From sequence record PQ758395: DNA of 64,000 nt; one strand, written 5' to 3'. This DNA comes from Escherichia phage phita32. A program made the position numbers and the translations under genes. A model generated the notes under the pieces. The model did not search any database and was not told where the DNA came from. It saw only the letters and a list, made by a program, of their open reading frames with translations. This document shows, piece by piece, positions 9,026 to 33,020 of the stretch. Position 1 is the first letter of the stretch. Every line of letters starts with the position of its first letter.

Positions 9026-9301
9026 AAATAACATTGTGGCTTCATAGAGTAATCTATGTCGAATAACCTCTTTAACTGCGGGAAGCCTAAACCTTATGGC
9101 AAGGTAATCCGCAACGAAGCGCTCAAAAGAGCGAACGCTCAGAGGCCATTCCGAAAGGAAGTAGACCAGCAAGTGCGGTCGAAATGGGAGGATTCCTGTG
9201 GTTGCTTATTATAGGAATATGAGATGGTCCGATCCTACGTGAAAACGTATGGCTATGCACGTAATGGTGCGGGGTAGCTTAACGACCTACCTGAACTATT
9301 G
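9026..9301 (+). ncRNA. group I self-splicing intron (no ORF) in DNA polymerase gene
   Basis: Exon 1 ends in U (..UACCAU) pairing with intron GUGG guide at 9037-9040; intron ends in G 9301; P/Q/R/S-like core elements AACTGCGGGAAGC 9074-9086, TAATCCGCAACG 9105-9116, GCTCAGAGGCC 9137-9147, GAGATGGTCCGATCC 9221-9235; splicing restores motif C YHDEYQLQV. Confidence 0.6.
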
Positions 9302-11855: not shown

Positions 11856-12116
11856 ATGACCAAACAATATCAACGAATTAAAGCCAAGGTTAAGCCAGAC
11901 TATCTGGAGAAAGACTCTGCTTTTCGGGACTGCACAGCCGACAAAGTTTACACAGGGGCTGTCCTATTGAACGATAAACTTGAAGTAGATGTGCTGGGTA
12001 AAGAGGCCGTTATCGAGGATGACAACGGTGACTGTGTTTTCTGCACCACACGGGAGCTAGAAGTCTTAGAATACTTCGGTGAAATCTTCAACTCCTTAGA
12101 CGACGAGGAAGCGTGA
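11856..12116 (+). CDS. hypothetical protein (tandem paralog B)
   Basis: Start moved from track 11796 (which overlaps the promoter) to ATG 11856; paralog of 11541..11792. Confidence 0.5.
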   Translation: MTKQYQRIKAKVKPDYLEKDSAFRDCTADKVYTGAVLLNDKLEVDVLGKEAVIEDDNGDCVFCTTRELEVLEYFGEIFNSLDDEEA

Positions 12117-12505
12117 TGAAAAATATTTGGGATATTGATATCTTTGAAGCCTCTAAGCTTGACGGTGCTGATGGAGTGATTATGGTGTCTGATGGCAAGG
12201 CAACACTAACTTCCGGAGATATCATCTATGCCTTGGACGAGCTGGCGCTTCTGAAATCTATCGGTAACACTTTGGAGGAGCGTCTTCAAGGCTTCGCTTT
12301 CAAAGAAGGTACAAATACCGCCATGATGTGCACCACACGGACAGTCCAGGTAGGTAACGGTGTCTATATGATCATTGCTGTGTGTCCTAAATTCAGCAAC
12401 GTCAACAAAGATGATACTGACGCTGTCAACGATGTGGTTGTTCTCTTCGTGGGTGACGCTATGGCAGATCTGATGAATGCAGGAGAAGCAGCAAATGAAG
12501 ACTGA
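12113..12505 (+). CDS. hypothetical protein
   Basis: ORF with GAGGAAG SD. Confidence 0.45.
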   Translation: MMKNIWDIDIFEASKLDGADGVIMVSDGKATLTSGDIIYALDELALLKSIGNTLEERLQGFAFKEGTNTAMMCTTRTVQVGNGVYMIIAVCPKFSNVNKDDTDAVNDVVVLFVGDAMADLMNAGEAANED

Positions 12506-18929: not shown

Positions 18930-19500
18930 TCAGGTTGCCAGAGATCAGGAGGATTTCTAAAATGGATTTCCTCCTTTTGATATTTTACCTACCAGGATAT
19001 TTTAAAATCCTTAGAAAATCAGAAAATGGATCGAAAACTAAAATGGATTTTTCAGAGCAGGCACGACGAGATGAACCACTCATCCTATCGTTTGCACCAT
19101 ATTCCAGACCACCATTACAGATTTCCCGCACATGCTCACATCCTTCTCCTAGAACTTCCCCCACTTACCCTTGACCTTTTATGGTAATGATATAACCACT
19201 ATCTTGAAGTTGCGGTGCAGCTTTCCAAGTACTCGATCTGTTTTTCGTTTCAAAGATTGAATTTTCTGAAAATTTTTCTCGATAAATTTCTCAGTACTCG
19301 ATCTGTTTTTCGTTTTCTGAATCGGATTTTCTGGAAATCGTTCCGGCTCTCGACCTGAAATTTTTGGGGACGAAATCGATTTTTCGTTTTCAGAAATGGA
19401 TTTTTAAAATTTCTATATGGGAATATTTTAGTGGATACTATTTTATAGGAAATTGTTACGGAGGGTAATTAGCGTGCTAATTAAATTTATTAAATGCGAG
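18930..19500. repeat. ORF-poor region with short direct-repeat families
   Basis: AAATGGAT(T/C) four times (about 18961, 19024, 19040, 19405); TACTCGATCTGTTTTTCGTTT twice (19221, 19293); TTTTCGTTTTC variants. Confidence 0.4.
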
Positions 19501-19518
19501 GAGTTCTAATTTAGAATT

Positions 19519-19537
19519 TTGAATGATAATCATTCTC
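19519..19537. promoter_or_regulatory. Fur-box-like site 1
   Basis: ttgAATGATAATCATTcTC matches 15 of 19 positions of the Fur consensus GATAATGATAATCATTATC. Confidence 0.3.
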
Positions 19538-19552
19538 GTTTGCAGAATAACG

Positions 19553-19575
19553 GGCAGGCCCGGTGATTGTCTCCC
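19553..19575 (+). repeat. GC-rich 23-bp element GGCAGGCCCGGTGATTGTCTCCC (left copy)
   Basis: Recurs degenerate at 19696-19712 and as an exact inverted copy at 29118-29140. Confidence 0.45.
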
Positions 19576-19655
19576 GGCCCCTGTTGCCCCGGCTTGTTAT
19601 TATAGTATCACGCAGGACAAAGAAAGCAAGGATTTTTTGCATAAATTTTTAGACG

Positions 19656-19674
19656 ATAATGATAACCGTTCTCA
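19656..19674. promoter_or_regulatory. Fur-box-like site 2
   Basis: GATAATGATAAcCgTTcTC matches 16 of 19 positions of the Fur consensus. Confidence 0.3.
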
Positions 19675-20059
19675 TTCTATCTAGCGCCCATCCCCAGTGA
19701 TTGTCTCCCCCGTCACCAGGGCCTGCCGTCCTTTCGATAGGTATATTGTGCCACCTGGCGGGGCCGCTGTCAACACCTTTCAAAAAAAAAAAATTATAAC
19801 CAGGTGCGCCCACTGCCAGGACCTGGCGGGGCCAACCTGGCAGGTCCGCGCTATAAAGTGAACAGCTACAGAAGAGGTACAAAAATGAAAGGTAATGCTA
19901 CTCACCTGGAAAATAGTAATTGATGATACGGAAGCTATCGCCCTGGTCGAGAAGGCTAAAACTGAAGCACCGGAACATAAAGAAGAGTACGAAAAACGGT
20001 GGTGATCTGGCAGGGCGGCGGCAGGTGGATTCTATCATAAAAATAATTTAAAATAATTG

Positions 20060-20088
20060 TTGACAACCGGGGGAGTCCTGCTATTCTT
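20060..20088 (+). promoter_or_regulatory. sigma70-like promoter (TTGACA-17-TATTCT)
   Basis: -35 TTGACA 20060-20065; weaker -10. Confidence 0.4.
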
Positions 20089-20138
20089 ATCCTACAAGGT
20101 GAACAACACCGCACTAACTAGTAAAGAGGATAAAAATC

Positions 20139-20351
20139 ATGAACGCATACGGAATCAAAGTACGTCGCAACACTCGCCAGGTGGTAACCGATCAAGTGGT
20201 TTGCCTGGTGGATGTAACCATCAACAACGGGCAAGGCCTTTATAAATTTCGTCGCGGTCATAGTTATACCCTGCAACAGCTTAACCGTTGCGCCCTGACA
20301 AAAGGTCAGATCAACCACTGGTTTAATAAAAAAATAAATATTGACATGTAG
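20139..20351 (+). CDS. hypothetical small protein
   Basis: ORF with AAGAGGA SD. Confidence 0.5.
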   Translation: MNAYGIKVRRNTRQVVTDQVVCLVDVTINNGQGLYKFRRGHSYTLQQLNRCALTKGQINHWFNKKINIDM

Positions 20352-20369
20352 TCTGAAACAAAATATACT
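20341..20369 (+). promoter_or_regulatory. sigma70-like promoter (TTGACA-17-TATACT)
   Basis: -35 20341-20346 overlaps the upstream stop; -10 TATACT 20364-20369. Confidence 0.55.
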
Positions 20370-20401
20370 AAAAGCACAAAAGACACTAAGAGGATAAAAT
20401 C

Positions 20402-20800
20402 ATGAAAACCACAACCTTTAATTTTGATAATGCTAACTTCTCTTTTTCTGATGTTAAGAACTGCCGCCGTGATCGCGGATTCTACAAGGCCTATAATCTG
20501 GTTGGCCTTGACGATGATAATAATTTGCACGAAGTGGCGGAGATCCGGTACTATGCCGCCGCCAGTGGTAACACTAACTACTGCGTTTTTTGGATACACG
20601 ACAACAAGAACAATAAGTACGGTTATACTGGCGGCAAGGCGAGCGGTCACGGTTATGATAAAGCCAACGCTGCACTTGAAAGCGCATTAAATGCCATGGG
20701 AATCACTGCTAACGGCTGGATCTATGAAGAAGAATTTTTGGCGGCACTTGCTGCCCACCTGGGCTATAAAAAGCACATTGTAACATGCGCCCACGAATAA
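20402..20800 (+). CDS. hypothetical protein
   Basis: ORF with AAGAGGA SD; Gly/Tyr-rich. Confidence 0.5.
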   Translation: MKTTTFNFDNANFSFSDVKNCRRDRGFYKAYNLVGLDDDNNLHEVAEIRYYAAASGNTNYCVFWIHDNKNNKYGYTGGKASGHGYDKANAALESALNAMGITANGWIYEEEFLAALAAHLGYKKHIVTCAHE

Positions 20801-20811
20801 AAAAAAAATAT

Positions 20812-20839
20812 TTGACACGCCACAAAATTTAAGTAGACT
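20812..20839 (+). promoter_or_regulatory. sigma70-like promoter (TTGACA-16-TAGACT) with leader hairpin
   Basis: -35 20812-20817, -10 20834-20839; GGCGGGAAACATCCCGCC hairpin 20849-20866 then CA-rich leader and SD. Confidence 0.5.
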
Positions 20840-20883
20840 ATATACAAAGGCGGGAAACATCCCGCCAACACAGAGGAAAAGCT

Positions 20884-21279
20884 ATGAATAAGAACGTACG
20901 CCGCATCATGAACGAACTGGCAAACGATGAAAAAATTATTGACATGCATTTGGTCAACATTTGCCGCCGTTGTGTAACATACAACAACCGCGCCGCAAAA
21001 GCGCGTGAGATGAACGCAAAAGGCACCTTAAAGCCCTTTCAGGTGGTTGTAAAATCTATAACTAATGCAGCAGGCCAGGCGCATGATCACAACAACGAGA
21101 GCACTAATATTGATCCGTCTTACGTAATGAAACGGATCCGGACTTGCAAGAATAAAGAGCAGGTGTATAACGTCATAGATTGGCTTGATTCCATGGGCGA
21201 CGTGGTTTACAATAGATTTTCTGCAGCTATTGAAATTCAGTTAGACAGGTTGGACGGGAAAGTACTAAAAACTTACTGA
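20884..21279 (+). CDS. hypothetical protein
   Basis: ORF with GAGGAAAAG SD. Confidence 0.5.
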   Translation: MNKNVRRIMNELANDEKIIDMHLVNICRRCVTYNNRAAKAREMNAKGTLKPFQVVVKSITNAAGQAHDHNNESTNIDPSYVMKRIRTCKNKEQVYNVIDWLDSMGDVVYNRFSAAIEIQLDRLDGKVLKTY

Positions 21280-21290
21280 GTTTATTTTTA

Positions 21291-21327
21291 GATGGCCTTG
21301 ACTCCAGGGCCATCAATAAAGTAAACT
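21291..21327 (+). promoter_or_regulatory. palindrome-embedded promoter (GATGGCC-TTGACT..-GGCCATC, -10 TAAACT), copy 1
   Basis: 7-bp inverted arms flank the -35; near-identical copies at 21912 and 25629. Confidence 0.45.
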
Positions 21328-21359
21328 AATCCCAGTTAAGCGAAAAAGGAGGCTTGAAG

Positions 21360-21479
21360 ATGAGCACTACACGCCAGCACACAAAGGTAACTATTATCGT
21401 TTGCATCATTGGTTATATCCTGGCGCAAATGTTGATGGGTAGCGCCAACGGTGTCGCAAAATTTTTCTTAAACTTTTAA
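21360..21479 (+). CDS. small hydrophobic peptide (39 aa, not in ORF track)
   Basis: ATG 21360 with AAAAAGGAGG SD; MSTTRQHTKVTIIVCIIGYILAQMLMGSANGVAKFFLNF. Confidence 0.4.
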   Translation: MSTTRQHTKVTIIVCIIGYILAQMLMGSANGVAKFFLNF

Positions 21480-21507
21480 TTGACAAGCTAACTTAGATCA
21501 GTATACT
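21480..21507 (+). promoter_or_regulatory. sigma70-like promoter (TTGACA-16-TATACT)
   Basis: -35 21480-21485, -10 21502-21507. Confidence 0.55.
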
Positions 21508-21558
21508 AAACACATAAACGGGAAAACTTCCCAGAACACACAAAAGGAGAAAAACACC

Positions 21559-21900
21559 ATGACTACTATGACCGCCGCAGAAAAAGCTATTCAGGTTGCA
21601 GCACTGAAAAAACAGATCGCAGACCTTGAGAACAAGATCGATAACTTTGAAATCGACGAGGACAAGTACGACGAAAACTATGATGAATGGTTAGACGAGA
21701 TCTACGGCGAAATTATGATCGGAAACATTTCTTTTCTTCCGTCGCGTATCCTCAAGGAGCTAGATCCTATCGCTTACCGCTGCGGATTTAGCGACTACAT
21801 CGACAGCCTGGATATTGAGGACGATGAAGAATACCAGGAATTACAGACAGAGTTGGAAGAAGCAAAAGAAGAGCTTGCAGAACTGGAAGAAAACGAGTAA
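21559..21900 (+). CDS. hypothetical acidic coiled-coil protein
   Basis: ORF with AAGGAGA SD; highly acidic C-terminus. Confidence 0.5.
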   Translation: MTTMTAAEKAIQVAALKKQIADLENKIDNFEIDEDKYDENYDEWLDEIYGEIMIGNISFLPSRILKELDPIAYRCGFSDYIDSLDIEDDEEYQELQTELEEAKEELAELEENE

Positions 21901-21911
21901 ATTTATTTTTA

Positions 21912-21948
21912 GATGGCCTTGACGCCAGGGCCATCGATAAAGTAAACT
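21912..21948 (+). promoter_or_regulatory. palindrome-embedded promoter, copy 2
   Basis: GATGGCC TTGACG CCAG GGCCATC .. TAAACT. Confidence 0.45.
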
Positions 21949-21989
21949 TTATACTGTTAACACTGAACTAATACAGAGGAGTTAAAACC

Positions 21990-22235
21990 ATGGCAGCACT
22001 AATCACCAAATACTATGCACCGACCAACACCAAAAGCGCACGCATCTTGGTAAAAGGATTCGGACGTAAAAAGGTTTACACCTGGGATTATGCCTTAGAC
22101 ATGGAAGACAACTACACCAACGCGATGACAGATTTTATTAATGAACTAAATAAACAGATCTTAACCAATTATAAGGTGACCGACATCGCCTATGTTGGGG
22201 AAGGTGGGATCTGTTTTGTCGGTATTGTCAAATAA
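21990..22235 (+). CDS. hypothetical protein
   Basis: ORF with GAGGAG SD. Confidence 0.5.
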   Translation: MAALITKYYAPTNTKSARILVKGFGRKKVYTWDYALDMEDNYTNAMTDFINELNKQILTNYKVTDIAYVGEGGICFVGIVK

Positions 22236-22247
22236 GCTGTTTTTCGG

Positions 22248-22267
22248 TGGCCCTGGTGGCAGGGCCA
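22248..22267. promoter_or_regulatory. variant palindrome TGGCCCTG-gtgg-CAGGGCCA
   Basis: 8-bp arm hairpin/operator followed by TATAAAG; related to the GATGGCC..GGCCATC family. Confidence 0.3.
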
Positions 22268-22309
22268 TCTATAAAGATAGTTTATTAACACCATGAAAGG
22301 AGAAAGTAC

Positions 22310-22663
22310 ATGATCAGTGGGGCTAGTTTTATTATTGGCGCTATTGCTACGGCTTTAATTGTAAACAAGATCCAGGATAAAAAGGAAAGAGGAAGTACCG
22401 ACCTTGCAGAATATCCATTTTGGACATTCAATGATAACGAAGATTATATTGTAAAGTATAAAAATAAAGAAGGTGACCAAGTAACACCGCGACCGATCCC
22501 GGCTTACAAGATGCAGGAAACACTATACCGCTTGGAGGCGGGAGGCGCAAAAATTGTGGACTTTTGGGGATACGATCACACAGATCAGGAAGTTATAAAG
22601 CGCCGTATCCGGGCTATTCAGGCCAATATTGAAGTTAGCAAGGGGGGAATATATGAAGATTAA
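22310..22663 (+). CDS. putative membrane-anchored protein
   Basis: N-terminal helix ISGASFIIGAIATALIVNKI; AAAGGAGAAAG SD. Confidence 0.5.
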   Translation: MISGASFIIGAIATALIVNKIQDKKERGSTDLAEYPFWTFNDNEDYIVKYKNKEGDQVTPRPIPAYKMQETLYRLEAGGAKIVDFWGYDHTDQEVIKRRIRAIQANIEVSKGGIYED

Positions 22664-22850
22664 TTTTGAGAAGATTGTAAAGCGATCTCATGATTCCGAA
22701 GAGCTGCCGGAACGCCGCCAGCGTAACAATAAACTGAATAAGCCAAAAAGATTTGGGAAGATCTGGCGGAATCATTATGATCGTAAATTGCCGGGCCTCC
22801 TTTTGGAACGTGAACGACAGGCGGAACGATACCGCCACAAAGGCAAATAA
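22653..22850 (+). CDS. hypothetical basic protein
   Basis: Start moved from track 22629 to ATG 22653 (AAGGGGGG SD); Arg/Lys-rich. Confidence 0.4.
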   Translation: MKINFEKIVKRSHDSEELPERRQRNNKLNKPKRFGKIWRNHYDRKLPGLLLERERQAERYRHKGK

Positions 22851-22859
22851 CAACCAACG

Positions 22860-22888
22860 CCCCGCTATTGTGCGGGGCTTTTTATTTC
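22860..22888 (+). terminator. rho-independent terminator
   Basis: GCCCCGC-tattgt-GCGGGGC followed by TTTTTATTT. Confidence 0.7.
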
Positions 22889-23008
22889 TATCCCGCCGAT
22901 AGCGCCCCTGGTTGGCCCCACAACGCCCTAAAGGCCCCCTACCTATGCAATCTCCTTTCTTAACCTGAAAACATCGTCAAAGGCCGTTTTAAAGCGTTAA
23001 AAATATTG

Positions 23009-23036
23009 TTGACATCTAAAATATTCTAGATATACT
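23009..23036 (+). promoter_or_regulatory. sigma70-like promoter (TTGACA-16-TATACT)
   Basis: -35 23009-23014, -10 23031-23036. Confidence 0.55.
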
Positions 23037-23071
23037 AATCACATCAAAGCGAGAAGTAAGGAGTAAACGCC

Positions 23072-23341
23072 ATGCGTAAATTGAAAAATTTTGATAAAGT
23101 CGATGTTGTCCTAAATAATTTTTACTACTGCAATAATAAAGCCGTTTGGTGGCGCGATAATTCCACCGATAAGGTTAAGGCGCGCTTTCTCCAAGGGTAC
23201 TGGCAAGGCCGTCCAGTGATTAAAATCCTGGGGCAATTGGTAGCGTTTAAAAATTGCCGCCGTGTTGACGACGTTGAAGAGATTTTAAACATTTTGCGCC
23301 ACAATAATTTAAAAATAGTGTTGACAAGTAAATATCGATAA
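23072..23341 (+). CDS. hypothetical protein
   Basis: ORF with AAGGAG SD. Confidence 0.5.
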   Translation: MRKLKNFDKVDVVLNNFYYCNNKAVWWRDNSTDKVKARFLQGYWQGRPVIKILGQLVAFKNCRRVDDVEEILNILRHNNLKIVLTSKYR

Positions 23342-23348
23342 GTATACT
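23321..23348 (+). promoter_or_regulatory. sigma70-like promoter (TTGACA-16-TATACT) with leader hairpin
   Basis: -35 23321-23326 inside 3' end of upstream gene; GGCGGGAAAACTTCCCGCC hairpin 23359-23377. Confidence 0.55.
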
Positions 23349-23405
23349 TAAACACACAGGCGGGAAAACTTCCCGCCACTAACAAAGAAAATAGGAGAAA
23401 ATATC

Positions 23406-24029
23406 ATGACCACCGTTAACATTACTACAGGTTACAATTTATCTTTCGACGTGCTGACCGACGAACAAAAAGAAAAAGCCGTTGAAATGGTCCGCGAAAG
23501 AGAAGAACACAGCGGGGATAACTTTTTTGCAGAAAGTGTAATTGAATACTATAAAGAGTATGTTTTTCCAGAGTACGGGCTTGAAGATACAGAGGTACAT
23601 TGGTCCGGCTTTTGGTGCCAGGGTGACGGCGCGTCAATCAGTGCTGAAAACGTGGACTTAGAAAAATTCTTGCGTAAAGTCAAGTCTCTGACTAAATTCC
23701 GCTCAATTCGCCACTTGTTCGGCACAATGCATGACGGGGAATTATCAGCCAGTGTTGAACGTGACACATACAGCCGCTATAGTCACGAAAACACTGTAAA
23801 CGGATACATCGATACTACTTGGCTAGACCTAACCGCCAAACAAGAAAACAAAGTGGAAGATTTGGAAGAGCTGATCACCGAGACGGTACGGGAGTTATCC
23901 CGCAAGGTTTACGTAGACTTGGAAGCGGCCTATTTGGAGCAATTCACATCTGAAAACTTGATCGGCCTTATCGAGGCCAATGATTGGCGGTTTGATGTCG
24001 ATGAATATGGTGAGATGACTTTTTCATAA
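23406..24029 (+). CDS. hypothetical acidic protein (207 aa)
   Basis: ORF with AGGAGAAAA SD; no motif assigned. Confidence 0.5.
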   Translation: MTTVNITTGYNLSFDVLTDEQKEKAVEMVREREEHSGDNFFAESVIEYYKEYVFPEYGLEDTEVHWSGFWCQGDGASISAENVDLEKFLRKVKSLTKFRSIRHLFGTMHDGELSASVERDTYSRYSHENTVNGYIDTTWLDLTAKQENKVEDLEELITETVRELSRKVYVDLEAAYLEQFTSENLIGLIEANDWRFDVDEYGEMTFS

Positions 24030-24037
24030 ATAAAGTG

Positions 24038-24065
24038 TTGCAATAACCTAAAAACCTGTTATATT
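24038..24065 (+). promoter_or_regulatory. sigma70-like promoter (TTGCAA-16-TATATT) with leader hairpin
   Basis: GGGGGCAAGACGTTTGCCCC hairpin 24075-24094. Confidence 0.45.
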
Positions 24066-24118
24066 AAAACTCAAGGGGGCAAGACGTTTGCCCCACACAA
24101 AACAAAGAGGAAAACATC

Positions 24119-24499
24119 ATGAAAAACACTACTAAAGCTATTGACACCGTTATGTTTAACCTGGTTACCTTTCGCGAGGATATGAAAGATCTTCCACGTG
24201 AAACAGTGTGCGACCATATCGAAAACTATCGCAAACTAATCAAAGAGTTGCCTTTAAAACGTGACCAGTATGCGGCTAACGCTATGCTTAACGCTATGAT
24301 CAAAAAGATGATCCAGTGTGATTTAACTCTGGCCTATGATTATGCAGGTGGTCGTTTTGCAGTATACAATCGGCCCGTGCCTGGTATGAGCACCACCGAA
24401 GAATTGCACGCGCTCAATCTAAAACAAGACGTGTGGGATAGTATGCCCCGCGTGGTGGTGTGGGCAGAAAGCGGAAAGATTTACGGCGATAATTTTTAA
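24119..24499 (+). CDS. hypothetical protein
   Basis: ORF with AGAGGAAAA SD. Confidence 0.5.
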   Translation: MKNTTKAIDTVMFNLVTFREDMKDLPRETVCDHIENYRKLIKELPLKRDQYAANAMLNAMIKKMIQCDLTLAYDYAGGRFAVYNRPVPGMSTTEELHALNLKQDVWDSMPRVVVWAESGKIYGDNF

Positions 24500-24509
24500 T
24501 CAGGTAACA

Positions 24510-24538
24510 GGCGGCGGCATATTTGCCGCCTTATTGTT
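24510..24538 (+). terminator. probable rho-independent terminator
   Basis: GGCGGC-atattt-GCCGCC then TTATTGTT. Confidence 0.55.
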
Positions 24539-24566
24539 AAACAGAACTGTAAAAGAGGTACATAGA

Positions 24567-24926
24567 ATGGAATTTATTATTCTGACTGTATTAGTTGCCT
24601 TGTTCAACGCCTGGATCGCTGGCAAGGTAGGCAGATCCGCTTTCTTATGGTTTATTATATCTATTTTCCTGGGAGTGGTTGCAACTATCATATTGGTTAT
24701 CCTTGCAATTGTTGACAAAGGTAATAATAGAAAGGGTAAAGTATTTTCCGACCTGTATGACGCACAAACGTTCGTCAACGCCTATTATGGTGATCTCCCG
24801 GTATCCCTACGCTGCAGCCTGGCACAACAGGTTTTTGATGAAGCTAAAACCAGAGATCAAGCCCATGAGATATGTTTAACTGAGGCGGATCGCCTATTTG
24901 AGAGGAATAGAAAATATGTGGGCTAA
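24567..24926 (+). CDS. putative membrane protein (two TM helices)
   Basis: Start moved from track 24534 to ATG 24567 (AAGAGG SD); helices IILTVLVALFNAWIAG and FLWFIISIFLGVVATIILVILAIV. Confidence 0.5.
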   Translation: MEFIILTVLVALFNAWIAGKVGRSAFLWFIISIFLGVVATIILVILAIVDKGNNRKGKVFSDLYDAQTFVNAYYGDLPVSLRCSLAQQVFDEAKTRDQAHEICLTEADRLFERNRKYVG

Positions 24927-25161
24927 CCGTTTAAATAACTCCGCGCTAATTAATCCCTTTAGTGAAGATTTGAAGCCAGCCGCCTGGCGTGATGGATTCA
25001 ATACCGAAGGATTTATTTTCAGGCCTGATCTTGAGGAATTTTATAACAATGGATCGAACAACGACAGAGATAATTTTTCTTGTGATGTGCGTAGCGATGG
25101 TACTCCTGGGGGCCATTGCAAACCACATCACTACTACCAGGGGGAAAGGGGGAGACGATGA
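24916..25161 (+). CDS. hypothetical protein (uncertain)
   Basis: ORF with GAGAGGAA SD; overlapping alternative-frame ORF 24989..25174 makes the assignment ambiguous. Confidence 0.25.
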   Translation: MWANRLNNSALINPFSEDLKPAAWRDGFNTEGFIFRPDLEEFYNNGSNNDRDNFSCDVRSDGTPGGHCKPHHYYQGERGRR

Positions 25162-25277
25162 CAACCAAGGATAAGCCCCGCACCGATAAGGCGCGCCGGG
25201 TTATGGTATGGCTTGAGATCATCGCCCTTGAAATATTGCTAGGCGTAGGGATGTACTTTATCGCTGTAAGTAACTAA
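25158..25277 (+). CDS. small membrane peptide (39 aa, not in ORF track)
   Basis: ATG 25158 with AGGGGGAAAGGGGGAG SD; MTTKDKPRTDKARRVMVWLEIIALEILLGVGMYFIAVSN; terminator follows. Confidence 0.4.
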   Translation: MTTKDKPRTDKARRVMVWLEIIALEILLGVGMYFIAVSN

Positions 25278-25282
25278 GAACG

Positions 25283-25310
25283 GCCCCCGATCATGGGGGC
25301 TTATCTTTTT
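25283..25310 (+). terminator. rho-independent terminator
   Basis: GCCCCC-gatcat-GGGGGC then TTATCTTTTT. Confidence 0.7.
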
Positions 25311-25332
25311 AAAAAATTTCCCTTCCAGGGTG

Positions 25333-25361
25333 TTGCAATCCGGTCCGCAATATGGATAATA
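25333..25361 (+). promoter_or_regulatory. sigma70-like promoter (TTGCAA .. GATAAT) with leader hairpin
   Basis: GGGGAGCTAATCCCC hairpin downstream; same architecture at 26149. Confidence 0.45.
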
Positions 25362-25416
25362 ACAATCAACGGGGAGCTAATCCCCACCAACACAAAAACC
25401 AGAAAGGAGAAACAAA

Positions 25417-25617
25417 ATGAGCAACAATATCCGCGTTATTAACTTCAAAAAAGAAGAAAAAATTGCCGTGCTGATTGACGGTCAAGAAATCTTCAAGGGC
25501 TATTATGAAGATCATCAAACGGCGATTAGTATCACTCGCGTGATCGGTTACCATAATTTCTACCCCCAAGGCGCTGAGGCAGCGGTTAAACGAATCAAAG
25601 AGATTGTAGGCCTGTAA
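25417..25617 (+). CDS. hypothetical small protein
   Basis: ORF with AAAGGAGAAA SD. Confidence 0.5.
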   Translation: MSNNIRVINFKKEEKIAVLIDGQEIFKGYYEDHQTAISITRVIGYHNFYPQGAEAAVKRIKEIVGL

Positions 25618-25628
25618 ATTTATTTTTA

Positions 25629-25665
25629 GATGGCCTTGACTCCAGGGCCATCAATAAAGTAAATT
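25629..25665 (+). promoter_or_regulatory. palindrome-embedded promoter, copy 3
   Basis: GATGGCC TTGACT CCAG GGCCATC .. TAAATT; near-identical to 21291 copy. Confidence 0.45.
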
Positions 25666-25707
25666 TTAATCGTGATAAAATAATCAGTGCAAAAAGGAGT
25701 AATGATC

Positions 25708-26007
25708 ATGTTCATACCCGCCAATAATCTTTATTTCTTTGATGGTCAAATCGTAGACGGTGTGGAGGTGGAGATCACCGGGTGCCCTGGTGGTCAGGTT
25801 ATGACTTTCCGGAATAATGCCTTTGATGATTCTCATATCGTTATGAGAATGGAAGTTAGTAAGCTAGATGATAAGAAAACATTGATTGACTATTCCGTCA
25901 AAGATCATCCAGACTACCACATGATCTATGGTGATTTGTGCATTGTTGACCGTGACAAGGTGGGCGGCATTGTGATCGCTATTGTGAACGATGTTTTCTC
26001 TGTATAG
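25708..26007 (+). CDS. hypothetical protein
   Basis: Start moved from track 25687 to ATG 25708 (AAGGAG SD 8 nt upstream). Confidence 0.5.
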   Translation: MFIPANNLYFFDGQIVDGVEVEITGCPGGQVMTFRNNAFDDSHIVMRMEVSKLDDKKTLIDYSVKDHPDYHMIYGDLCIVDRDKVGGIVIAIVNDVFSV

Positions 26008-26065
26008 TTCCGGTAAATGATGCAAAATAAGGCCCCTAGCAGGGCCTGCAGCGATATAATCACAT

Positions 26066-26100
26066 AAAGGCCATGCAACCGCATGGCCTTTATTATTTTG
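26066..26100 (+). terminator. rho-independent terminator
   Basis: AAAGGCCATGC-aacc-GCATGGCCTTT then ATTATTTTG. Confidence 0.6.
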
Positions 26101-26148
26101 GCGTTACAGCGGCCCCCAAGGTGCTTAAAAAATTTTTTAAAGAAGTAC

Positions 26149-26177
26149 TTGCATCAAGCCCTACAATATGGATAATA
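26149..26177 (+). promoter_or_regulatory. sigma70-like promoter (TTGCAT .. GATAAT) with leader hairpin
   Basis: GGGGGCGGCCCCC hairpin downstream. Confidence 0.45.
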
Positions 26178-26232
26178 GGACGTGTCGGGGGGCGGCCCCC
26201 AATCATTAACCGGATAGATAGGAGTTAAAATC

Positions 26233-26517
26233 ATGGCTATTGTTACCGTTGGCGATGTAGTAGAAATGGAAGCAAAATACTTAAAAGCGGGTATGCATAT
26301 CCTACGGAATGATCAAGAGTTACTATTAACGATGGTCGACTATAATCCCGGCCAGGATTATCCAAGCATCGACTACTTTTTTGAGTATGTTGATGAAGAG
26401 TTGAAAGAGGATGAGGCCTATTGCGGTGAGTTCTGCAACTTCTTTTGTCCTGATGAGGTTGTAAAGGTTATTTATCAACCTGGCGTAGCTTTCCCGCTGC
26501 ACGCTATCAATAAATAA
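26233..26517 (+). CDS. hypothetical protein
   Basis: ORF with AGGAG SD. Confidence 0.5.
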   Translation: MAIVTVGDVVEMEAKYLKAGMHILRNDQELLLTMVDYNPGQDYPSIDYFFEYVDEELKEDEAYCGEFCNFFCPDEVVKVIYQPGVAFPLHAINK

Positions 26518-26582
26518 ACCTGGCGGGGCCGAAAAGGCCCCTACAGCATAAAATCATAAAAAATAAAGAGAGGCAAATCATC

Positions 26583-26816
26583 ATGATGGAACAAATTAAA
26601 CGCGCCGAGGCTATTAATGGCAATGTGATCTATTTTGTTAGCAATAACGAAAAAGGCGTACCATATGCAGCGGTAATAGTGCAGCCTGACGGCGATTATT
26701 GGTTTACTGTATACGGATCTTATTCTTTCGGGCGTCCGGTGCATGATAGAATTTTAAAAGTAGCTAATCCAACCGGGAAGAATATCACAGCAGAAAAATT
26801 TTTTGAAAATAGTTGA
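26583..26816 (+). CDS. hypothetical protein
   Basis: ORF with AGAGAGG SD; GGGGCCGAAAAGGCCCC hairpin upstream. Confidence 0.5.
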   Translation: MMEQIKRAEAINGNVIYFVSNNEKGVPYAAVIVQPDGDYWFTVYGSYSFGRPVHDRILKVANPTGKNITAEKFFENS

Positions 26817-26840
26817 CATGACCGTATAAGACTGTAGTAT
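26813..26840 (+). promoter_or_regulatory. sigma70-like promoter (TTGACA-16-TAGTAT) with leader hairpin
   Basis: -35 overlaps stop of upstream gene; GGGGGCAAGCCCC hairpin 26851-26863. Confidence 0.55.
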
Positions 26841-26889
26841 ATAAATCAAAGGGGGCAAGCCCCACCAACCACAAAGAGGATAAAAAATC

Positions 26890-27069
26890 ATGGCTATTAT
26901 TGCAAAGACCGAGATTTTAGGTTTAGATTCTATTCTCCTGGCATACGAGGAAGCTATAGAAATGTATGTGGTTTCCTATGGTGAGTATATCCGTGAATAT
27001 GAATCTATTGATCTAGCTTTTGAATGTTATATTCACCAGGTAAATAAGGCATATGATGATTATCGTTAA
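26890..27069 (+). CDS. hypothetical small protein (59 aa, not in ORF track)
   Basis: ATG 26890 with AAGAGGATAAAAAA SD. Confidence 0.4.
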   Translation: MAIIAKTEILGLDSILLAYEEAIEMYVVSYGEYIREYESIDLAFECYIHQVNKAYDDYR

Positions 27070-27151
27070 AATAGTTTGACAACAGTCAACAATCTGGTAA
27101 AGTGTACTACATAGCGCGGGAATACTTCCCGCCATTAATGAGGGTAATTTA

Positions 27152-27298
27152 ATGAAAACTTTCAACGCAACGGCCTCGACAATTGGTTATATTATTACAG
27201 TACAAGCCGTGGATCTGGTAGCAGCAGCAAACAAGATTAAAAAGATGATTCCGCCAGGCAGTGAATTTTCCGTTTGGGAAGTAAAAAATAAATCTTGA
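27152..27298 (+). CDS. hypothetical small protein (48 aa, not in ORF track)
   Basis: ATG 27152 downstream of GCGCGGGAATACTTCCCGCC leader hairpin and GAGGGTAA SD. Confidence 0.35.
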   Translation: MKTFNATASTIGYIITVQAVDLVAAANKIKKMIPPGSEFSVWEVKNKS

Positions 27299-27322
27299 CG
27301 ATAATTTGTTATCTGATAGAAT
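27295..27322 (+). promoter_or_regulatory. sigma70-like promoter (TTGACG-16-TAGAAT) with leader hairpin
   Basis: GGGCG..CGCCC hairpin 27335-27358. Confidence 0.5.
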
Positions 27323-27382
27323 GTATTTCGTAGGGCGGGGAAATAAGGCAACGCCCCACATCAACCGGAAGAGGAAAACAAG

Positions 27383-27619
27383 ATGAGTATTGCGACAATA
27401 TTAACCGCTGTTAAAACCGCTGAACGTTCCGGCCTGCAAGTTGAGATTATAGATCAACCAGGTGGCGATCTCCTTGTCCAAGTTTACCCGCCGAAAGTAG
27501 GGGATGATTATTATTGGTGTTATTCTGATACGTTCGAACAAGTAGACACGAAAGCAATAACCGCCTTTATTTTAAAAGCCGTTGAAGAAAATAACTTGCA
27601 CAATAACGTCAATCAATAA
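27383..27619 (+). CDS. hypothetical protein
   Basis: ORF with AAGAGGAAAA SD. Confidence 0.5.
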   Translation: MSIATILTAVKTAERSGLQVEIIDQPGGDLLVQVYPPKVGDDYYWCYSDTFEQVDTKAITAFILKAVEENNLHNNVNQ

Positions 27620-27673
27620 ACCATAAGCGAAGTGGTAACGCCCCATTAAACGCAATAGAAAGAGGATAACTAC

Positions 27674-27778
27674 ATGAAACAGAAATTAATTGATGCGGTG
27701 ATCCTGGTTATTGCCCTAGGTATTGGCCTGATTGCAACCATGGCTAATATGATCTTGTCTTCCAACGGTATCGGATAA
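27674..27778 (+). CDS. small membrane peptide (34 aa, not in ORF track)
   Basis: ATG 27674 with AAGAGGATAA SD; MKQKLIDAVILVIALGIGLIATMANMILSSNGIG. Confidence 0.35.
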   Translation: MKQKLIDAVILVIALGIGLIATMANMILSSNGIG

Positions 27779-27787
27779 GGTGGGCAA

Positions 27788-28003
27788 ATGATCACCAACA
27801 AAACAGGCAAAACAGAATTTTTACGCAACTTGCAGATCGGCAAGCCTGAGATCTGGTATTGCACTAAAACACCACGTGACGAAATGAAAGACTTCACCGC
27901 CACGCTGCAACGGGTGAAGATATCTATCACACAGAAAAAGGCCTTACTAGTGGTGGAAGGTGAGATCCCCCAAACCGTTGTTATAGTTGAGCGTACAGCA
28001 TAG
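27788..28003 (+). CDS. hypothetical protein
   Basis: ORF with AAGGTGGG SD. Confidence 0.45.
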   Translation: MITNKTGKTEFLRNLQIGKPEIWYCTKTPRDEMKDFTATLQRVKISITQKKALLVVEGEIPQTVVIVERTA

Positions 28004-28094
28004 TTTAATTTATACAGATACCTGAAAATTAACCAACAAAGCATAAACAGGCGGTTACCGCCGCCTTAAACGTAGCAGAAAGAGGATAGACACA

Positions 28095-28379
28095 ATGAAA
28101 AAGATGATCGCAGTGGTTTCCCTGGTTGTTGGACTTAATGCGCCTGTAATGGCTAAAGAGCTGGCAAAAGAGGTTGATCTAACGGATATCCATGCCGTCA
28201 ATCAAATCGGGGTTACTTATCGCTTATGCCTTGCCGCTAAAACTTTTAATGACGGCACAACAGAGTACTACGGATTCGAGGGTATCCGGTGCGGTGAGCT
28301 TGCTCGCGACCTTAAGGAAGATCCAGACCTGGAAGATCTGCCCATCACCGTAAACGGTAAAGCTTACGTAGACCGTTAA
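28095..28379 (+). CDS. putative secreted/periplasmic protein
   Basis: N-terminal signal-peptide-like MKKMIAVVSLVVGLNAPVMA; AAGAGGATAG SD. Confidence 0.5.
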   Translation: MKKMIAVVSLVVGLNAPVMAKELAKEVDLTDIHAVNQIGVTYRLCLAAKTFNDGTTEYYGFEGIRCGELARDLKEDPDLEDLPITVNGKAYVDR

Positions 28380-28381
28380 CC

Positions 28382-28522
28382 ATGAGAAAGATAATCATCA
28401 CCTTGGGGATTGTGGTAGCAATATTGGCGCTCTTTCCCCTTATGGTTAGATATGTGCTGATACGTGCTGTTCTAGTGGTCAGCGATCTGGTGTTATATAT
28501 ATATATTAACTTACTGTTTTAG
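28382..28522 (+). CDS. small hydrophobic peptide (46 aa, not in ORF track)
   Basis: ATG 28382 directly after upstream stop; MRKIIITLGIVVAILALFPLMVRYVLIRAVLVVSDLVLYIYINLLF. Confidence 0.3.
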   Translation: MRKIIITLGIVVAILALFPLMVRYVLIRAVLVVSDLVLYIYINLLF

Positions 28523-28718
28523 GTGCGATAATGACCACTGATGAAGCTGTAAAAGTGTTGGCGGTATTGAGATAACATAATCAGACAAAAGTTATAAACG
28601 ATCCTGATTATGTTGACTCAAAGCGTGAAGATGAGACATTGACCGCAATAGGGATTATTCAAGAATTGCTAAAGCGCATGACAGAGAAAAACCGACCTGA
28701 CTACATAGGGGGTAAAAT

Positions 28719-29030
28719 ATGATCGCTATTACGCCAACCGTTTTAGATTGGTATCGGCAACGCATAGCGCTTCCGCTGGCTATCTTCAAAGATGCGGAAG
28801 CAAAACAACGCCGGATCTCAATACATGAGATCATCAACCTTAACGCTGGAGGCACACCATACCGTCCAGGACCTGGCCGTGAGATGGACAATACGTTAGC
28901 GATCCTGAAGATACGCCGTAAACGGTCCTCCCTTACGCTGGACTCATTACACACAATGCAGTCTCCGTTCCAGGTGACCGGGAAACGGATCGCCAGGTCC
29001 TGGACAAAGGCCAATGATCGGACCGTATAA
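28719..29030 (+). CDS. hypothetical protein (uncertain; lies in GC-rich repeat-containing segment)
   Basis: ORF with AGGGGGTAAAAT SD on the array strand; region carries CCAGGACCTGG / CCAGGTCCTGG inverted motifs and could be non-coding. Confidence 0.3.
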   Translation: MIAITPTVLDWYRQRIALPLAIFKDAEAKQRRISIHEIINLNAGGTPYRPGPGREMDNTLAILKIRRKRSSLTLDSLHTMQSPFQVTGKRIARSWTKANDRTV

Positions 29031-29117
29031 ATAAAAAGTGTTTTGGTACTGATTTTGGGGTTGACTTGTTCGGCCCCTTTTGCTATTCTTATTAAACGGG
29101 CGGCACTTGGGAACAGG

Positions 29118-29140
29118 GGGAGACAATCACCGGGCCTGCC
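29118..29140 (-). repeat. GC-rich 23-bp element (inverted right copy)
   Basis: Plus strand GGGAGACAATCACCGGGCCTGCC is the reverse complement of 19553-19575. Confidence 0.45.
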
Positions 29141-29165
29141 TGTCATATAAGAACTATAAAAACCT

Positions 29166-29194
29166 TTGACATCTGCCATGGGGTGAGGTAACAT
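29166..29194 (+). promoter_or_regulatory. sigma70-like promoter (TTGACA-17-TAACAT) with leader hairpin
   Basis: GGGGGCAAAAGTGCCC hairpin downstream. Confidence 0.5.
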
Positions 29195-29249
29195 TTATCT
29201 TGAAGGGGGCAAAAGTGCCCACACAACAACCAGGAGAGAGGAAAACACT

Positions 29250-29522
29250 ATGTCAAGCTGGATTAATCAAGAAGTCGAATCACGTTTTAATGCTATTTGG
29301 GATCTCATCGAAAAAGAGGACGGAACATCAAGCCCCTACCTCAACAATTTGGAATTCCATTTTGTGGAAGCGATGAACGCAGAACATGATCACGAAGGTG
29401 GCGCGGATGAGTTCGCTAAAGGTTATGGCTTTAACAATGCCAACGAAATGATCGAGGCGGTAGTACTCCAGGCTGAGGAAGATTATCAATTAAAAACTCT
29501 TGAATTCTGCCGCCGCAAGTAA
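29250..29522 (+). CDS. hypothetical protein
   Basis: ORF with AGGAGAGAGGAAAA SD. Confidence 0.5.
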   Translation: MSSWINQEVESRFNAIWDLIEKEDGTSSPYLNNLEFHFVEAMNAEHDHEGGADEFAKGYGFNNANEMIEAVVLQAEEDYQLKTLEFCRRK

Positions 29523-30403: not shown

Positions 30404-30421
30404 TTTTTTAACTGAATTATC

Positions 30422-30448
30422 AAGGGGCTTAAAGCCCCTTTCTTTTTG
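30422..30448 (+). terminator. rho-independent terminator
   Basis: AAGGGGCTT-t-AAGCCCCTT hairpin then TCTTTTTG. Confidence 0.7.
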
Positions 30449-30449
30449 T

Positions 30450-33020
30450 CTCCTCTTTTCCTACCACAAACGGCCAAGCCTGGCAAGTGGAATAATTGAC
30501 TAGCCAGCAATTACCAACACTGTACAAACATACATGTAAAATAGCTATTGCATAATATTTCATTGTGTGGTAGCAGGGCCATTTTTACCCGCTTTTCCTT
30601 CCAAAACTGCATGTAATTCCACTATTGCACAAAATTTAACCTGATGCACAATATCTCTTTCTTGTCAACAACTAAAAATCTTTATAAGTCATACACTTAC
30701 ATAACCACAAAAGCGTGTTCTACGTGAAAAATCGGGTATAACTATAGCCACTAAATTCCAGAATTCACGTAGCGTCACCATTCTATAGCCCGCTAAGTAT
30801 TTATTCCGACCATAGAATAACGGAATAGTCAATACCTGCATAAAATAATTATTCGTGTAAACTGCATAACATAAATCAGCTAGGGTGTCAACATTTTTCG
30901 TAAACAGCTTGAAATTATCACGGTGAGTTATCATAAGCAGATAAATCTTTAGTCGTCTAATGTTTACTGTACGTTACTATACTAACTGAAATCATTAGAT
31001 GACTAAGAGAAAGATAAGAAATCATTAACAATGCAATTGTTTTATTCGTAACAATAAGGCAACTATGCAAACGAATGGCATGGCGCGACGGAGTCGCGAC
31101 ATAATATAAAAGCAGTAACCATCACCCCCGTGATAGTTTGTCTGCAAACTATTAATCAGATCATAGTTGCCTTGTATTTAGTTAATCATGACATAAACTC
31201 AGGCATAGCCTTCGTCTCGAGGATGTTAACAAGCAAGGCAACTATAGATCTGCTAATAGTTGCCCTGCTTTTATATTATGTCATAGAAACACCCGAAGGG
31301 GTGACCAAAGGTCACCTGGCATAGCCAGTGAAAGATTATTAACTTGCTAATTGTCAACTTGTTGGCTGTTAGCTTGTCAATTGTAAACTAGTTAATTGTT
31401 ATCATGCAAACGAATGGCATGGCTTATCATCTATGCGTGAACTATCCAGGCGTAAACAGTCTATGTGGGAACAATCTATACGTGAACAGTGAAACATGAA
31501 ATAATAACAGTCGTTATTGTGGCGTATTGTGCTGCAGTATGTCATATTGTGTCAGACAAGTTTTTCTCCTCTTTGTCAAGTGCTGCATGAAAAATTTACA
31601 ATCTTGTATGGTAGCATTTTGCGGCCCTGTTTACATTCAGGAATGTATGTATAATCCTTGTTGTGTGGGCGTTTAGACGTCTGGACGGTCAGAAGTCTGC
31701 AGGTTAATATCTAATCTATTGGCTGCTAACTATATCCCCCACAAATAATAAGAAATATAATTGTTATATGTGTAAACCGTAACTCATGTTATCAATCCCT
31801 GTATGTATCGCCAGTGGTGCGCATAATGGGTATTATGTTAAATTGCCCGTAATGATAACTATTCTCACAATGATAGGTATTCTCATTCACCCCACAAGAT
31901 AGGTTGCAAATGTTGTGCCACTGTGTGAACGGCCTCACCTATTAATTTGCCTCACTGCCTCGATATTTGAGAATTATTATAAGAATGAAAAGTATTCCCA
32001 TTTCGTCCGCCTGGCAGCACTCCAGTCGCTACCGGCTCCTGACAGGGAAGCACTCCTGTAGGACAAGCACAAAATCGTGGTATAACTGGACCTGTTCAGA
32101 TATTTCTGGCTGGCTCTTCAGGTCTGTGTGGGAAAAGTCAACCTCTCTGGCGGGGCAGGGGATCATGACGGGAAAATTGCAGGTCAATTAAAAAATTTAC
32201 GTGGTGTATGAAGCGCTCTTCAGGTAAGGCATGTATTATGGGATGAAACCCTCTTCAGGCAATGATATTTGTGGGTGTGATATTTGCTGGAAAGCCAGAT
32301 ATGACGGGACTCCCGTCGGGGCAGGGGTAGTACAGACAGGGAAAATATGGGGATGTAGTTGGGGAAATTGATCAGACAGGTAGAGTATGGAATATGTTAC
32401 AAGTATGTTAACTATGGAGGGTGAATATCTGTAGGATTTGTGTGTAAAATCAAAGACTTAAGTGGTGTTGTGGTATTTTCTATAAATAATTCAAGTTTAA
32501 TAGGTAATATTTGTCTCTATCCGCTTTGTGTGGTAAACAGATTCAGATGAGATTGGTTTACAAGTGTATACATAATATACAAATTAAAGATACAAGAAAC
32601 CCCCCTCCCCCTTCAGCTACCATTCACCTTTTCCTCTGACTGGTACTTAAACACTTATTCAGACTCTTCAGGTTATCACCCATATATCATATGGCAGTGA
32701 CTGGTGTCCTCCGGCCCCTCTTTCGTCACCCGTCCGCTTCGCCATGCTAATGCCATAGCCAAATGTTCGGTTGTTCACCCTGTTCACTCAGGTGTATCTC
32801 CATACCCCTTCAAACCGAAGAGAACAGAAAACCCGAATTACTCGGTAAAAGAAAAGAGAAGAACTTAATTTTATCAGGATAGGCAAGAATGTCAAGGCAT
32901 GACTGCTCACTAAACAAGCAAACAGTCATGTGTGGTAGGTAAGTGATTGTGGTGGTAGGAAATTTAGTTGAAAGATGTGTTATAGGTGCTTCCAGCACTT
33001 TAGCCGGGCAACTAATTGTG
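30450..33020. other. 2.6-kb ORF-free, repeat-dense region between convergent gene blocks (candidate origin/regulatory or ncRNA locus)
   Basis: No ORF of 60 aa or more except one weak hit; repeat families GGCAACTAT/ATAGTTGCC (x4, 31050-31280), CTATRYGTGRAAC direct repeats (31431-31490), CAAACGAATGGCATGGC (x2), CTCTTCAGG (x4-5), GGGGCAGGGG (x2). Confidence 0.5.

Follow-up and report, generated by a model that had tools for sequence, protein, structure and literature searches.

A deeply conserved box downstream of predicted outward-facing promoters at both ends of an early-gene array in rV5-like phages

In the primary origin of phage T7, the tandem promoters phi1.1A and phi1.1B lead into AT-rich DNA that contains a gp4 primase site. 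Predicted tandem promoters also point into an AT-rich noncoding region in a 64,000-nucleotide (nt) stretch of Escherichia phage phita32 (PQ758395, referred to here in its whole length as the window), and there they are accompanied by a GC-rich module of ~50 nt, three copies of which lie at the two ends of an array of small early genes, and two of which contain a 23-nt inverted repeat that an initial annotation had read as a possible cassette boundary or pair of recombination sites. We find the module to be a promoter-proximal, orientation-specific, and deeply conserved box that starts outward-facing transcription units, as judged from their predicted promoters. The replication proteins of the related phage rV5, a gp4-like primase-helicase and PolA, are T7-like, and the rV5 origin is undefined (PMC3606486). 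The window departs from the T7 arrangement in having host sigma70 promoters, in having a conserved GC-rich box and Fur boxes between these promoters and the AT-rich DNA, and in containing iterons, and its origin is a candidate one.

Inverted homologous leaders lying just 3' of two opposed early promoters are also known from HK022 (putL/putR) and lambda (nutL/nutR), and like the modules of the window they are orientation-specific and nonpalindromic. However, the promoters in the window face outward over 9.5 kb of genes rather than diverging from an immunity region, the predicted left transcripts enter noncoding DNA, and the window contains neither boxA/boxB (by inspection) nor an N gene nor an evident two-stem put fold of ~70 nt, the consensus fold being weak. 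The ssiA and ssiB sites of RSF1010 are likewise conserved, sequence-specific, hairpin-prone elements, inverted on opposite strands beside iterons, and they prime outward; but they are adjacent to each other, promoter-independent, and recognized by the RepB' primase, whereas the window copies are 9.5 kb apart and always promoter-linked, and we know of no RepB'-type primase in these phages. A further comparator is the pair of 131-bp inverted repeats of phage T5 (IRC-spacer-IRD and IRD'-spacer-IRC'), which contain DnaA boxes and have been proposed to be an injection stop signal (bioRxiv 10.1101/866236). Both systems have deeply conserved inverted noncoding repeats that bracket a few kilobases of poorly conserved early genes near a large noncoding region and that carry boxes for a host DNA-binding protein, but in the window these are putative Fur boxes and not DnaA boxes, and no promoter linkage is described for the T5 repeats (bioRxiv 10.1101/866236). 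In the literature searched, neither the box, nor Fur boxes for this group of virulent phages, nor transcriptomes of the group are described; the box thus appears to be undescribed there, though it is akin to elements already known from promoter leaders or from origins. Phages of the rV5-like and phAPEC8-like groups have some of the broadest host ranges of all coliphages and are phage-therapy candidates, and the box offers a testable handle on the start of replication or early control, and on whether these phages sense the iron status of the host.

The window belongs to an rV5-like myovirus (Vequintavirus) with ~91% identity to phages I29 and rV5 across 19-30 kb. Between the 23-mer copies are ~25 small plus-strand genes, all hypothetical in annotated relatives and interspersed with many sigma70-type promoters and terminators; to the left of this array is a region of ~700 bp without credible genes (NCR-L, 19190-19885), and to its right are three further small genes and then a noncoding region of ~1.6 kb (NCR-R, 30446-32100). 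The 23-mer GGCAGGCCCGGTGATTGTCTCCC is present at 19553-19575 (plus strand) and, exactly inverted, at 29118-29140 (minus strand), as first noted; these are its only two occurrences in the 64 kb, and 0 of 100 shuffles gave a match even at 3 mismatches. Extended without gaps, the two 23-mers become arms of 29 nt with 93% complementarity, separated by 9542 nt. What had been called a degenerate copy is a genuine one, the 13-nt core GGGAGACAATCAC being exact at 19697-19709 (minus strand) and 19693-19711 being 95% complementary to 29116-29134. The unusual GC content reported for the flanks is also borne out: it is 0.64-0.71 in the element segments, whereas the window as a whole averages 0.43 and its 60-nt windows have their 99th percentile at 0.567.

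Within the module, the 23-mer represents the core and the 3' arm, the consensus being GGGGAGACAAnCACCGGnCCTGCCYGYYATTC, and the three window copies can be aligned from the promoter through the GC-rich 5' arm and the core to the 3' arm. Each copy lies 26-31 nt 3' of a sigma70-type -10 box, is oriented like that promoter, and begins a few nucleotides past its predicted start site. Left module A (19545-19598, minus strand), which holds the 23-mer at 19553-19575, consists of a 5' arm (19592-19573), the core AGACAATCACC (19572-19562), the 3' arm GGGCCTGCCCG (19561-19551), and TTATTC (19550-19545). Its putative sigma70 promoter (19599-19629, minus strand), read from the sequence, has TTGCTT at 19629-19624 and TATAAT at 19604-19599, with a 19-nt spacer that accounts for its not being flagged by the promoter scan; the same position is occupied in other genera by TTGACC-17-GATAAT (Hena1) and TTGATC-16-TATTAT (L044, a contig like Salmonella phage GEC_vB_MG). 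Left module B (19680-19738, minus strand), the supposedly degenerate copy, has the core AGACAATCACT (19706-19696) and a 5' arm, GGCAGGCCCTGGTGA, that resembles the 5' arm of the right copy, and it follows a scan-detected promoter at 19745-19773 (minus strand; TTGACA-17-CACAAT with TG, 10/12 matches). The right module (29096-29146, plus strand) has the 5' strand of an outer stem at 29096-29104, a mini-hairpin CTTG-GGAA-CAGG at 29106-29117, the core AGACAATCACC at 29121-29131, and the 3' arm GGGCCTGCCTGTC at 29132-29144, and contains the reverse complement of the 23-mer at 29118-29140. Its promoter, also detected by scan, is part of a terminator-like element (29057-29089, plus strand) in which a hairpin at 29057-29077, followed by a T-run, overlaps TTGACT-17-TATTCT at 29061-29089; a second sigma70-type promoter (TTGACA-17-TAACAT, 29166-29194, plus strand) follows the right module and precedes the gene that comes next (29250-29522). 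Modules B and A thus read leftward and the right module rightward, all of them out of the early-gene array, and the inverted arrangement of the copies follows from the two outward-facing transcription units, with no recombination needed.

Conservation of the locus is concentrated on the modules. In sensitive blastn searches with 19480-19900 (421 nt) and 29030-29250 (221 nt) as queries, the only stretches that still match other genera are 19486-19577, comprising Fur box, 3' arm, and core, and 29057-29140, comprising promoter and module; the matches, at 70-89% identity, are to Mydovirus, Seunavirus, Certrevirus, Henunavirus, Serratia phages, and Phapecoctavirus, and so span Vequintavirinae and, with Phapecoctavirus, a second subfamily, Stephanstirmvirinae. 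All copies in the loci fetched share one order, namely promoter, ~8 nt, GC-rich 5' arm, AGACAA[A/T/C]CACC, N5, TGCC[C/T]G, and [C/T][T/C]ATTC, and the information profile of 28 distinct copies reads gggGGAGACAAnCACCgg.ccTGCCcGctAttc, with the core AGACAAnCACC nearly invariant. The copies in the window and in 10 or more relatives lie 26-32 nt past a -10 box and in the direction of the promoter, and a promoter ends 28-48 nt ahead of the core in 11 of 14 relatives and in 3 distant contigs. Left copies are always on the minus strand and right copies always on the plus strand in the genomes inspected, and IMG/VR, when scanned for AGACAANCACCNNNNNTGCCNG, gave no more than one minus and one plus match in any complete phage contig of 137-153 kb, hence one or two copies per genome, which, with three core copies in the 64-kb window here, makes the box locus-specific and not a dispersed motif; pattern scans of the collection added few loci. 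That the elements mark both ends of the array, as the initial annotation had proposed, holds for six genomes of four genera, in which left (minus) and right (plus) copies bracket small plus-strand genes in arrays of 7.9-10.2 kb (7,918 nt in GEC_vB_MG, 7,929 in DU_PP_I, 8,806 in rV5, 9,448 in ukendt, 9,549 in the window, and 10,225 in F2M1E). The left module with its Fur-box-like site was found in every genus examined; a search over 12 kb gave no right copy in phiTE, KpS11, Kashira, Hena1, and 4MG, all of which have retained the left one, and copy B is restricted to Vequintavirus.

Directly 3' of module A in transcript orientation is a Fur-box-like site (site A, 19519-19537; TTGAATGATAATCATTCTC) that matches 15/19 positions of the 19-bp Enterobacterial consensus GATAATGATAATCATTATC, with its overlapping 7-1-7 repeats, by which such sites were recognized. 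A second one (site B, 19655-19673; GATAATGATAACCGTTCTC) lies 3' of module B and matches 16/19, its rV5 equivalent matching 17/19. Both start within ~10-20 nt of their modules, and the chance expectation for sites with up to 4 mismatches is 0.45 per 64 kb. The site beside the left module is kept in seven relatives (rV5, ukendt, phiTE, KpS11, Kashira, GEC_vB_MG, and Hena1), and in Certrevirus and Seunavirus such sites are also present 3' of the right module, past a GC-rich spacer of ~40 nt. Farther along the predicted leftward transcripts are three iteron-like AT-rich direct repeats of 47-57 nt, spaced 65 and 74 nt (19219-19404; TACTCGATCTGTTTTTCG...), which we regard as a candidate replication origin. 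Comparable repeat arrays lie 3' of the module in phiTE, where GGGTCTCGATC repeats occupy the equivalent position, and in the uncultured contigs L043, L037, and L071, so that the window (19773 to 19219), phiTE, and these contigs all have the layout of transcription-activated origins of the T7/T4 ori type, with a promoter followed by AT-rich or iteron DNA. More Fur-box-like sequences are found in NCR-R at 31840-31890 (CGTAATGATAACTATTCTC...AATGATAGGTATTCTCATTC), and equivalent clusters are present in phiTE (L003, 10700-11540), KpS11 (L006, 18971-19143), and GEC_vB_MG (L008, 22572-23230), the one in phiTE comprising at least 8 sites, of which one, GATAATGAGAATCATTATC, has a single mismatch. At such a density on the genome of a virulent phage undergoing replication, these sites could titrate Fur.

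The explanation that we favor, with a rough probability of 0.4, is that the module is a cis element through which transcription by the host polymerase would activate or prime an origin or control region of the iteron type, with Fur regulating the process; the primary origin of T7 is the closest model. The target in cis would be either the transcribing complex or the displaced strand, which is RNA-like, and the module would serve to couple host RNA polymerase to the activation or priming of the origin or control region beside the array. Fur bound just 3' of the module would make this transcription responsive to iron, and the right copy would have arisen by duplication of the promoter-leader cassette in certain lineages. 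On its template strand the core reads 5'-TTGTC-3', a T7-type primase recognition sequence; its GTC is missing in the right copy of ukendt (ukendt-R) and in KpS11. Several observations weigh against this explanation, the most serious being that the right copies of Vequintavirus and Phapecoctavirus and the copy in the uncultured contig L058 precede another promoter and a gene, not iterons. In addition, an invariant 11-nt core is not obviously required for a role in priming or in an R-loop, the 19-nt spacer of the module A promoter is nonoptimal, and that iterons mark an origin is itself something we infer. Support for a hairpin is modest as well: RNAalifold finds almost no consensus structure among 13 left-A copies (-1.35 kcal/mol), the right copies show a single compensatory pair (A-U/G-C) in addition to U.G/C-G variation, and the mean z-score of the minimum free energy (MFE) over 32 copies is -1.07 for the sense strand versus -0.81 for the antisense strand (p=0.067).

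The box is also found outside the family. A pattern search gave 45 matches in unrelated viral contigs, most of them plainly chance and inside coding DNA, but four uncultured phage contigs carry the same AGACAAnCACC-N5-TGCCYG box, namely L043 (328 kb, box locus 2050-2500), L037 (87 kb, 1330-1730), L071 (94 kb, 560-900), and L058 (183 kb, 3400-3620). Among the 45 nonrelative matches only those in L043, L058, and L071 have a sigma70 promoter with 11-12 of 12 matches whose end is 28-48 nt ahead of the core, as in the family itself; tandem iterons follow the box at 50-250 nt in L043, L037, and L071. Blastn found no relatives of L037, L043, and L071 among 50,697 phage records (L058 was left out of this search), so that lineages differing in their iterons share one layout of promoter, box, and iterons, which suggests a more general signal; the open reading frames (ORFs) of the four contigs offered no replication or regulatory clue. 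A bolder form of the favored explanation, which we regard as unlikely, is that the AGACAAnCACC...TGCCYG box is an unrecognized origin-priming or replisome-loading signal of several unrelated large virulent phage lineages, read on the strand displaced by the host RNA polymerase, and that it is wired to host Fur in the rV5/phAPEC8 group, such that replication or entry would be iron-responsive; the clusters of Fur boxes in both noncoding regions might then also titrate Fur.

The alternative that survives best, nearly as likely as the favored explanation, is that the module is a cis-acting leader RNA unrelated to replication, in which the structured 5' end of the outward transcripts would block 5'-end-dependent decay or, on the model of HK022 putL/putR, would make the polymerase termination-resistant, with the core serving as a contact for polymerase or a host factor. 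Every copy does begin at a predicted RNA 5' end, and such a leader would suit every context, including the copies that precede genes; in addition, the right transcription unit runs into downstream terminators, including a hairpin at 30420-30445. The folding of individual copies is also in its favor. For the three window copies, folding is more favorable on the transcript-like strand (z = -2.35, -2.14, and -1.35) than on its complement (-0.86, -0.01, and +0.83), and in 11 right copies the outer stem described above and a CYUG-loop-CRGG mini-hairpin have 85.6% of cells paired, compared with 31-56% when the partners are slid. Window copy B differs from its relatives by changes of C-G to U.G and G-C to G.U that keep pairing only on the transcript-like strand, and the wobble changes in the right mini-hairpin likewise fit pairing on that strand alone. 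Across the family, on the other hand, structure is poorly conserved, RNAalifold finding little consensus for the right copies as well (-7.6), and with the MFE comparison above a strong conserved hairpin is not borne out; the invariant sequence is therefore the dominant constraint, with pairing secondary and varying from copy to copy. A leader RNA also leaves the recurrent link with Fur boxes and iterons unexplained, no terminators are predicted 3' of the left copies, and the two-stem put architecture is not evident. Nor does it find a match in Rfam: a covariance search with Rfam 15 gave no gathering-score match except for a group I intron elsewhere in the window (RF00028, 63 bits, E=1e-13; 9016-9251, plus strand), and the element regions and the KpS11 locus gave only chance-level matches at E<=10.

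Conservation that is stronger in sequence than in structure would be better accommodated by an element that works as duplex DNA, which we nonetheless consider improbable. Here GAGACA, an 18-bp GC-rich spacer, and a TATTCT-like hexamer would constitute a second promoter, which Fur would repress from a box at about +1 to +20, or else a regulator encoded by phage or host would use the core as its operator and act on the promoter upstream of it. The spacing core-N5-TGCCYG-NN-ATTC is indeed fixed, and most copies have YATTCN, CATATA, or TAGAAT 18 nt past GAGACA, with the left-copy Fur box 6-7 nt later. However, TTG is missing from the -35-like hexamer, L071, L037, and L043 have a poor -10-like hexamer or none, the core is not palindromic, the 1-3 copies per genome are too few for a general middle-promoter box, and the wobble-type substitutions would not be favored in duplex DNA.

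Very unlikely, in our view, is a trans-antisense pair, in which a Fur-repressed plus-strand promoter over Fur box A (TTGAAT-N18-CAGAAT) would give a short RNA from ~19551 whose first 23 nt would pair perfectly both with the leftward transcripts and with the right transcript in its 5' leader, for iron-dependent control. The element TTGAAT-N18-C[AT]GAAT is conserved with the Fur box in its spacer, a classical Fur-repressed geometry, the complementarity of 23 nt is perfect in the window, and within each of three Vequintavirus genomes the left and right 3' arms share a GGGCC or GGGGG variant. Yet position 2 of the putative -10 element can be A, T, or G, the Fur boxes of right copies do not keep the geometry, left and right copies are poorly complementary in ukendt and imperfectly so in rV5 and DU_PP_I, many genomes have no right copy, and the plus strand folds no better than shuffles. 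Identity between left and right copies is 26.7/33 within genomes, barely above the 25.7/33 found between genomes (p=0.045, confounded by phylogeny), so concerted evolution of the two copies is marginal only, and the exact 23-nt identity is explained mainly by the strong conservation of a shared module.

We give still less credence to the GC-rich hairpins being bidirectional terminators or insulators that shield the early array from flanking transcription, even though a "terminator" is drawn within the homologous element in the phiTE record and, on the opposite strand, AT-rich promoter DNA comes after the hairpin, since none of the three copies has a U-run on either strand, the terminator scan flagged 0 of 3 on either strand, an invariant loop sequence would not be expected, and hairpin stability is unremarkable in many relatives. 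Least credible is the reading in the initial annotation of an inverted site-specific recombination pair that inverts or excises the 9.5-kb array as a cassette, for, although an exact inverted 23-mer lies at each end, bracketing is kept in four genera, and there are weak signs of left-right covariation, the copies are tied to sigma70-type promoters at a set distance and are accounted for as promoter-leader paralogues, the core AGACAAnCACC...TGCCYG is asymmetric and orientation-specific without dyad symmetry, 55 records align at 80% or more coverage on a single strand across both elements with no inversion, the orientation is the same in all genomes inspected, five genomes have a left copy without a right copy, and, as first noted, no recombinase is annotated in the array of relatives, whose genes are hypothetical or encode membrane proteins, the ORFs at the array ends matching only PHROGs of unknown function.

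Nor does the array appear to move as one unit; it is a mosaic of 3-8 blast pieces per genome with several internal breakpoints. One of these, among Vequintaviruses, is at ~19846, just to the right of GC-rich ACCTGGCGGGGCC motifs, and another is at 29078, inside the right promoter/terminator hairpin, and so not at the 23-mers. These breakpoints fit the modular shuffling that is mediated by promoter-early stem-loops (PeSLs) in T4-type phages (PMC4122927) and not cassette exchange at the 23-mers. As in T4, the array is full of promoter/terminator stem-loops, the promoter of the right module is embedded in one of them (29057-29089), and mosaic breakpoints lie at such sites, but the 23-mer box differs from a PeSL in being downstream of the promoter, in being GC-rich with an invariant core, and in being confined to the array ends. 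One family of ~55-nt promoter-in-stem-loop elements within the array is found at 21276-21330, 21897-21951, 22231-22285, and 25614-25668 (GATGGCCTTGAC.CCAGGGCCATC...TAAACT). The palindromic motifs said to be shared by the two flanks are real, CCAGGWCCTGG being exact at 19816, 28866, and 28993 (given as 28995 in the initial annotation) and having, with one mismatch allowed, 4 matches versus 0.57 expected, but the two right-hand copies are inside the ORF 28719-29030 (phrog_13681), in opposite orientations, and not in the flank proper. The ACCTGGCGGGGCC motifs form a second GC-rich family, with five copies at 19753, 19821, 19835, 20005, and 26518 that are partly promoter spacers.

Several other candidates were rejected. 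A host origin of the left region is not indicated by blastn, which found no match in 5,426 E. coli genomes. Coding over the left elements, where relatives have a plus-strand ORF (phrog_14993, the 92-amino acid rV5 ORF198), is disfavored in that the ORF is here split into two frames that hold one half each (19523-19684 and 19697-19861, plus strand); with its frame broken, it is probably an annotation artifact over noncoding DNA, and the spurious ORF drawn across the elements calls for correction. The 179-amino acid minus-strand ORF over the right element has no family. By eye, the bases required for a CsrA GGA-loop, a DnaA box, an IHF site, RfaH ops, or boxA/boxB are not conserved among the copies.

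In place of copy B, other genera have another conserved promoter and GC-rich leader (..GCCACCCCACGGCGAAAAGGCGGGGCTAAC..GGAAGGTGGATCGCCGG..), located at ~12100-12330 (minus strand) in KpS11 L006, in 4MG L021, at 1430-1560 in ukendt L002, and at 1200-1330 in phiTE L003, for which there is no Rfam match. The small minus-strand gene that adjoins this leader matches DUF7170 in KpS11 and 4MG, and a related small gene is present in other genera, with the motif LGWQGGTVHQV in ukendt and phiTE; in the window, 19600-19886 leaves no room for such a gene. Neither the genes at 13-19 kb of the window nor DUF7170 in other genera gave a replication or regulatory clue. Directly 5' of the -35 element of the module promoter and of neighboring promoters, other genera also have TGTAAAGA / TCTTTACA boxes (KpS11 L006, ~12130-12160; phiTE L003, 1180-1210; ukendt L002, 1405-1425; DU_PP_I L019, ~19085), which are absent from the noncoding regions of the window and have 2 chance-level matches elsewhere in it.

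The right noncoding region shares no 10-mers with NCR-L and has repeats of its own, with ATGCAAACGAATGGCATGGC twice (31065 and 31404), GACATAATATAAAAGCAG in inverted orientation (31098 and 31265-31282), and AAGGCAACTAT three times. The records of several relatives begin at about window position 31350, and the direct terminal repeat of Hena1 sits in the equivalent region, and from these positions 30446-32100 may be the genome terminus or a packaging region.

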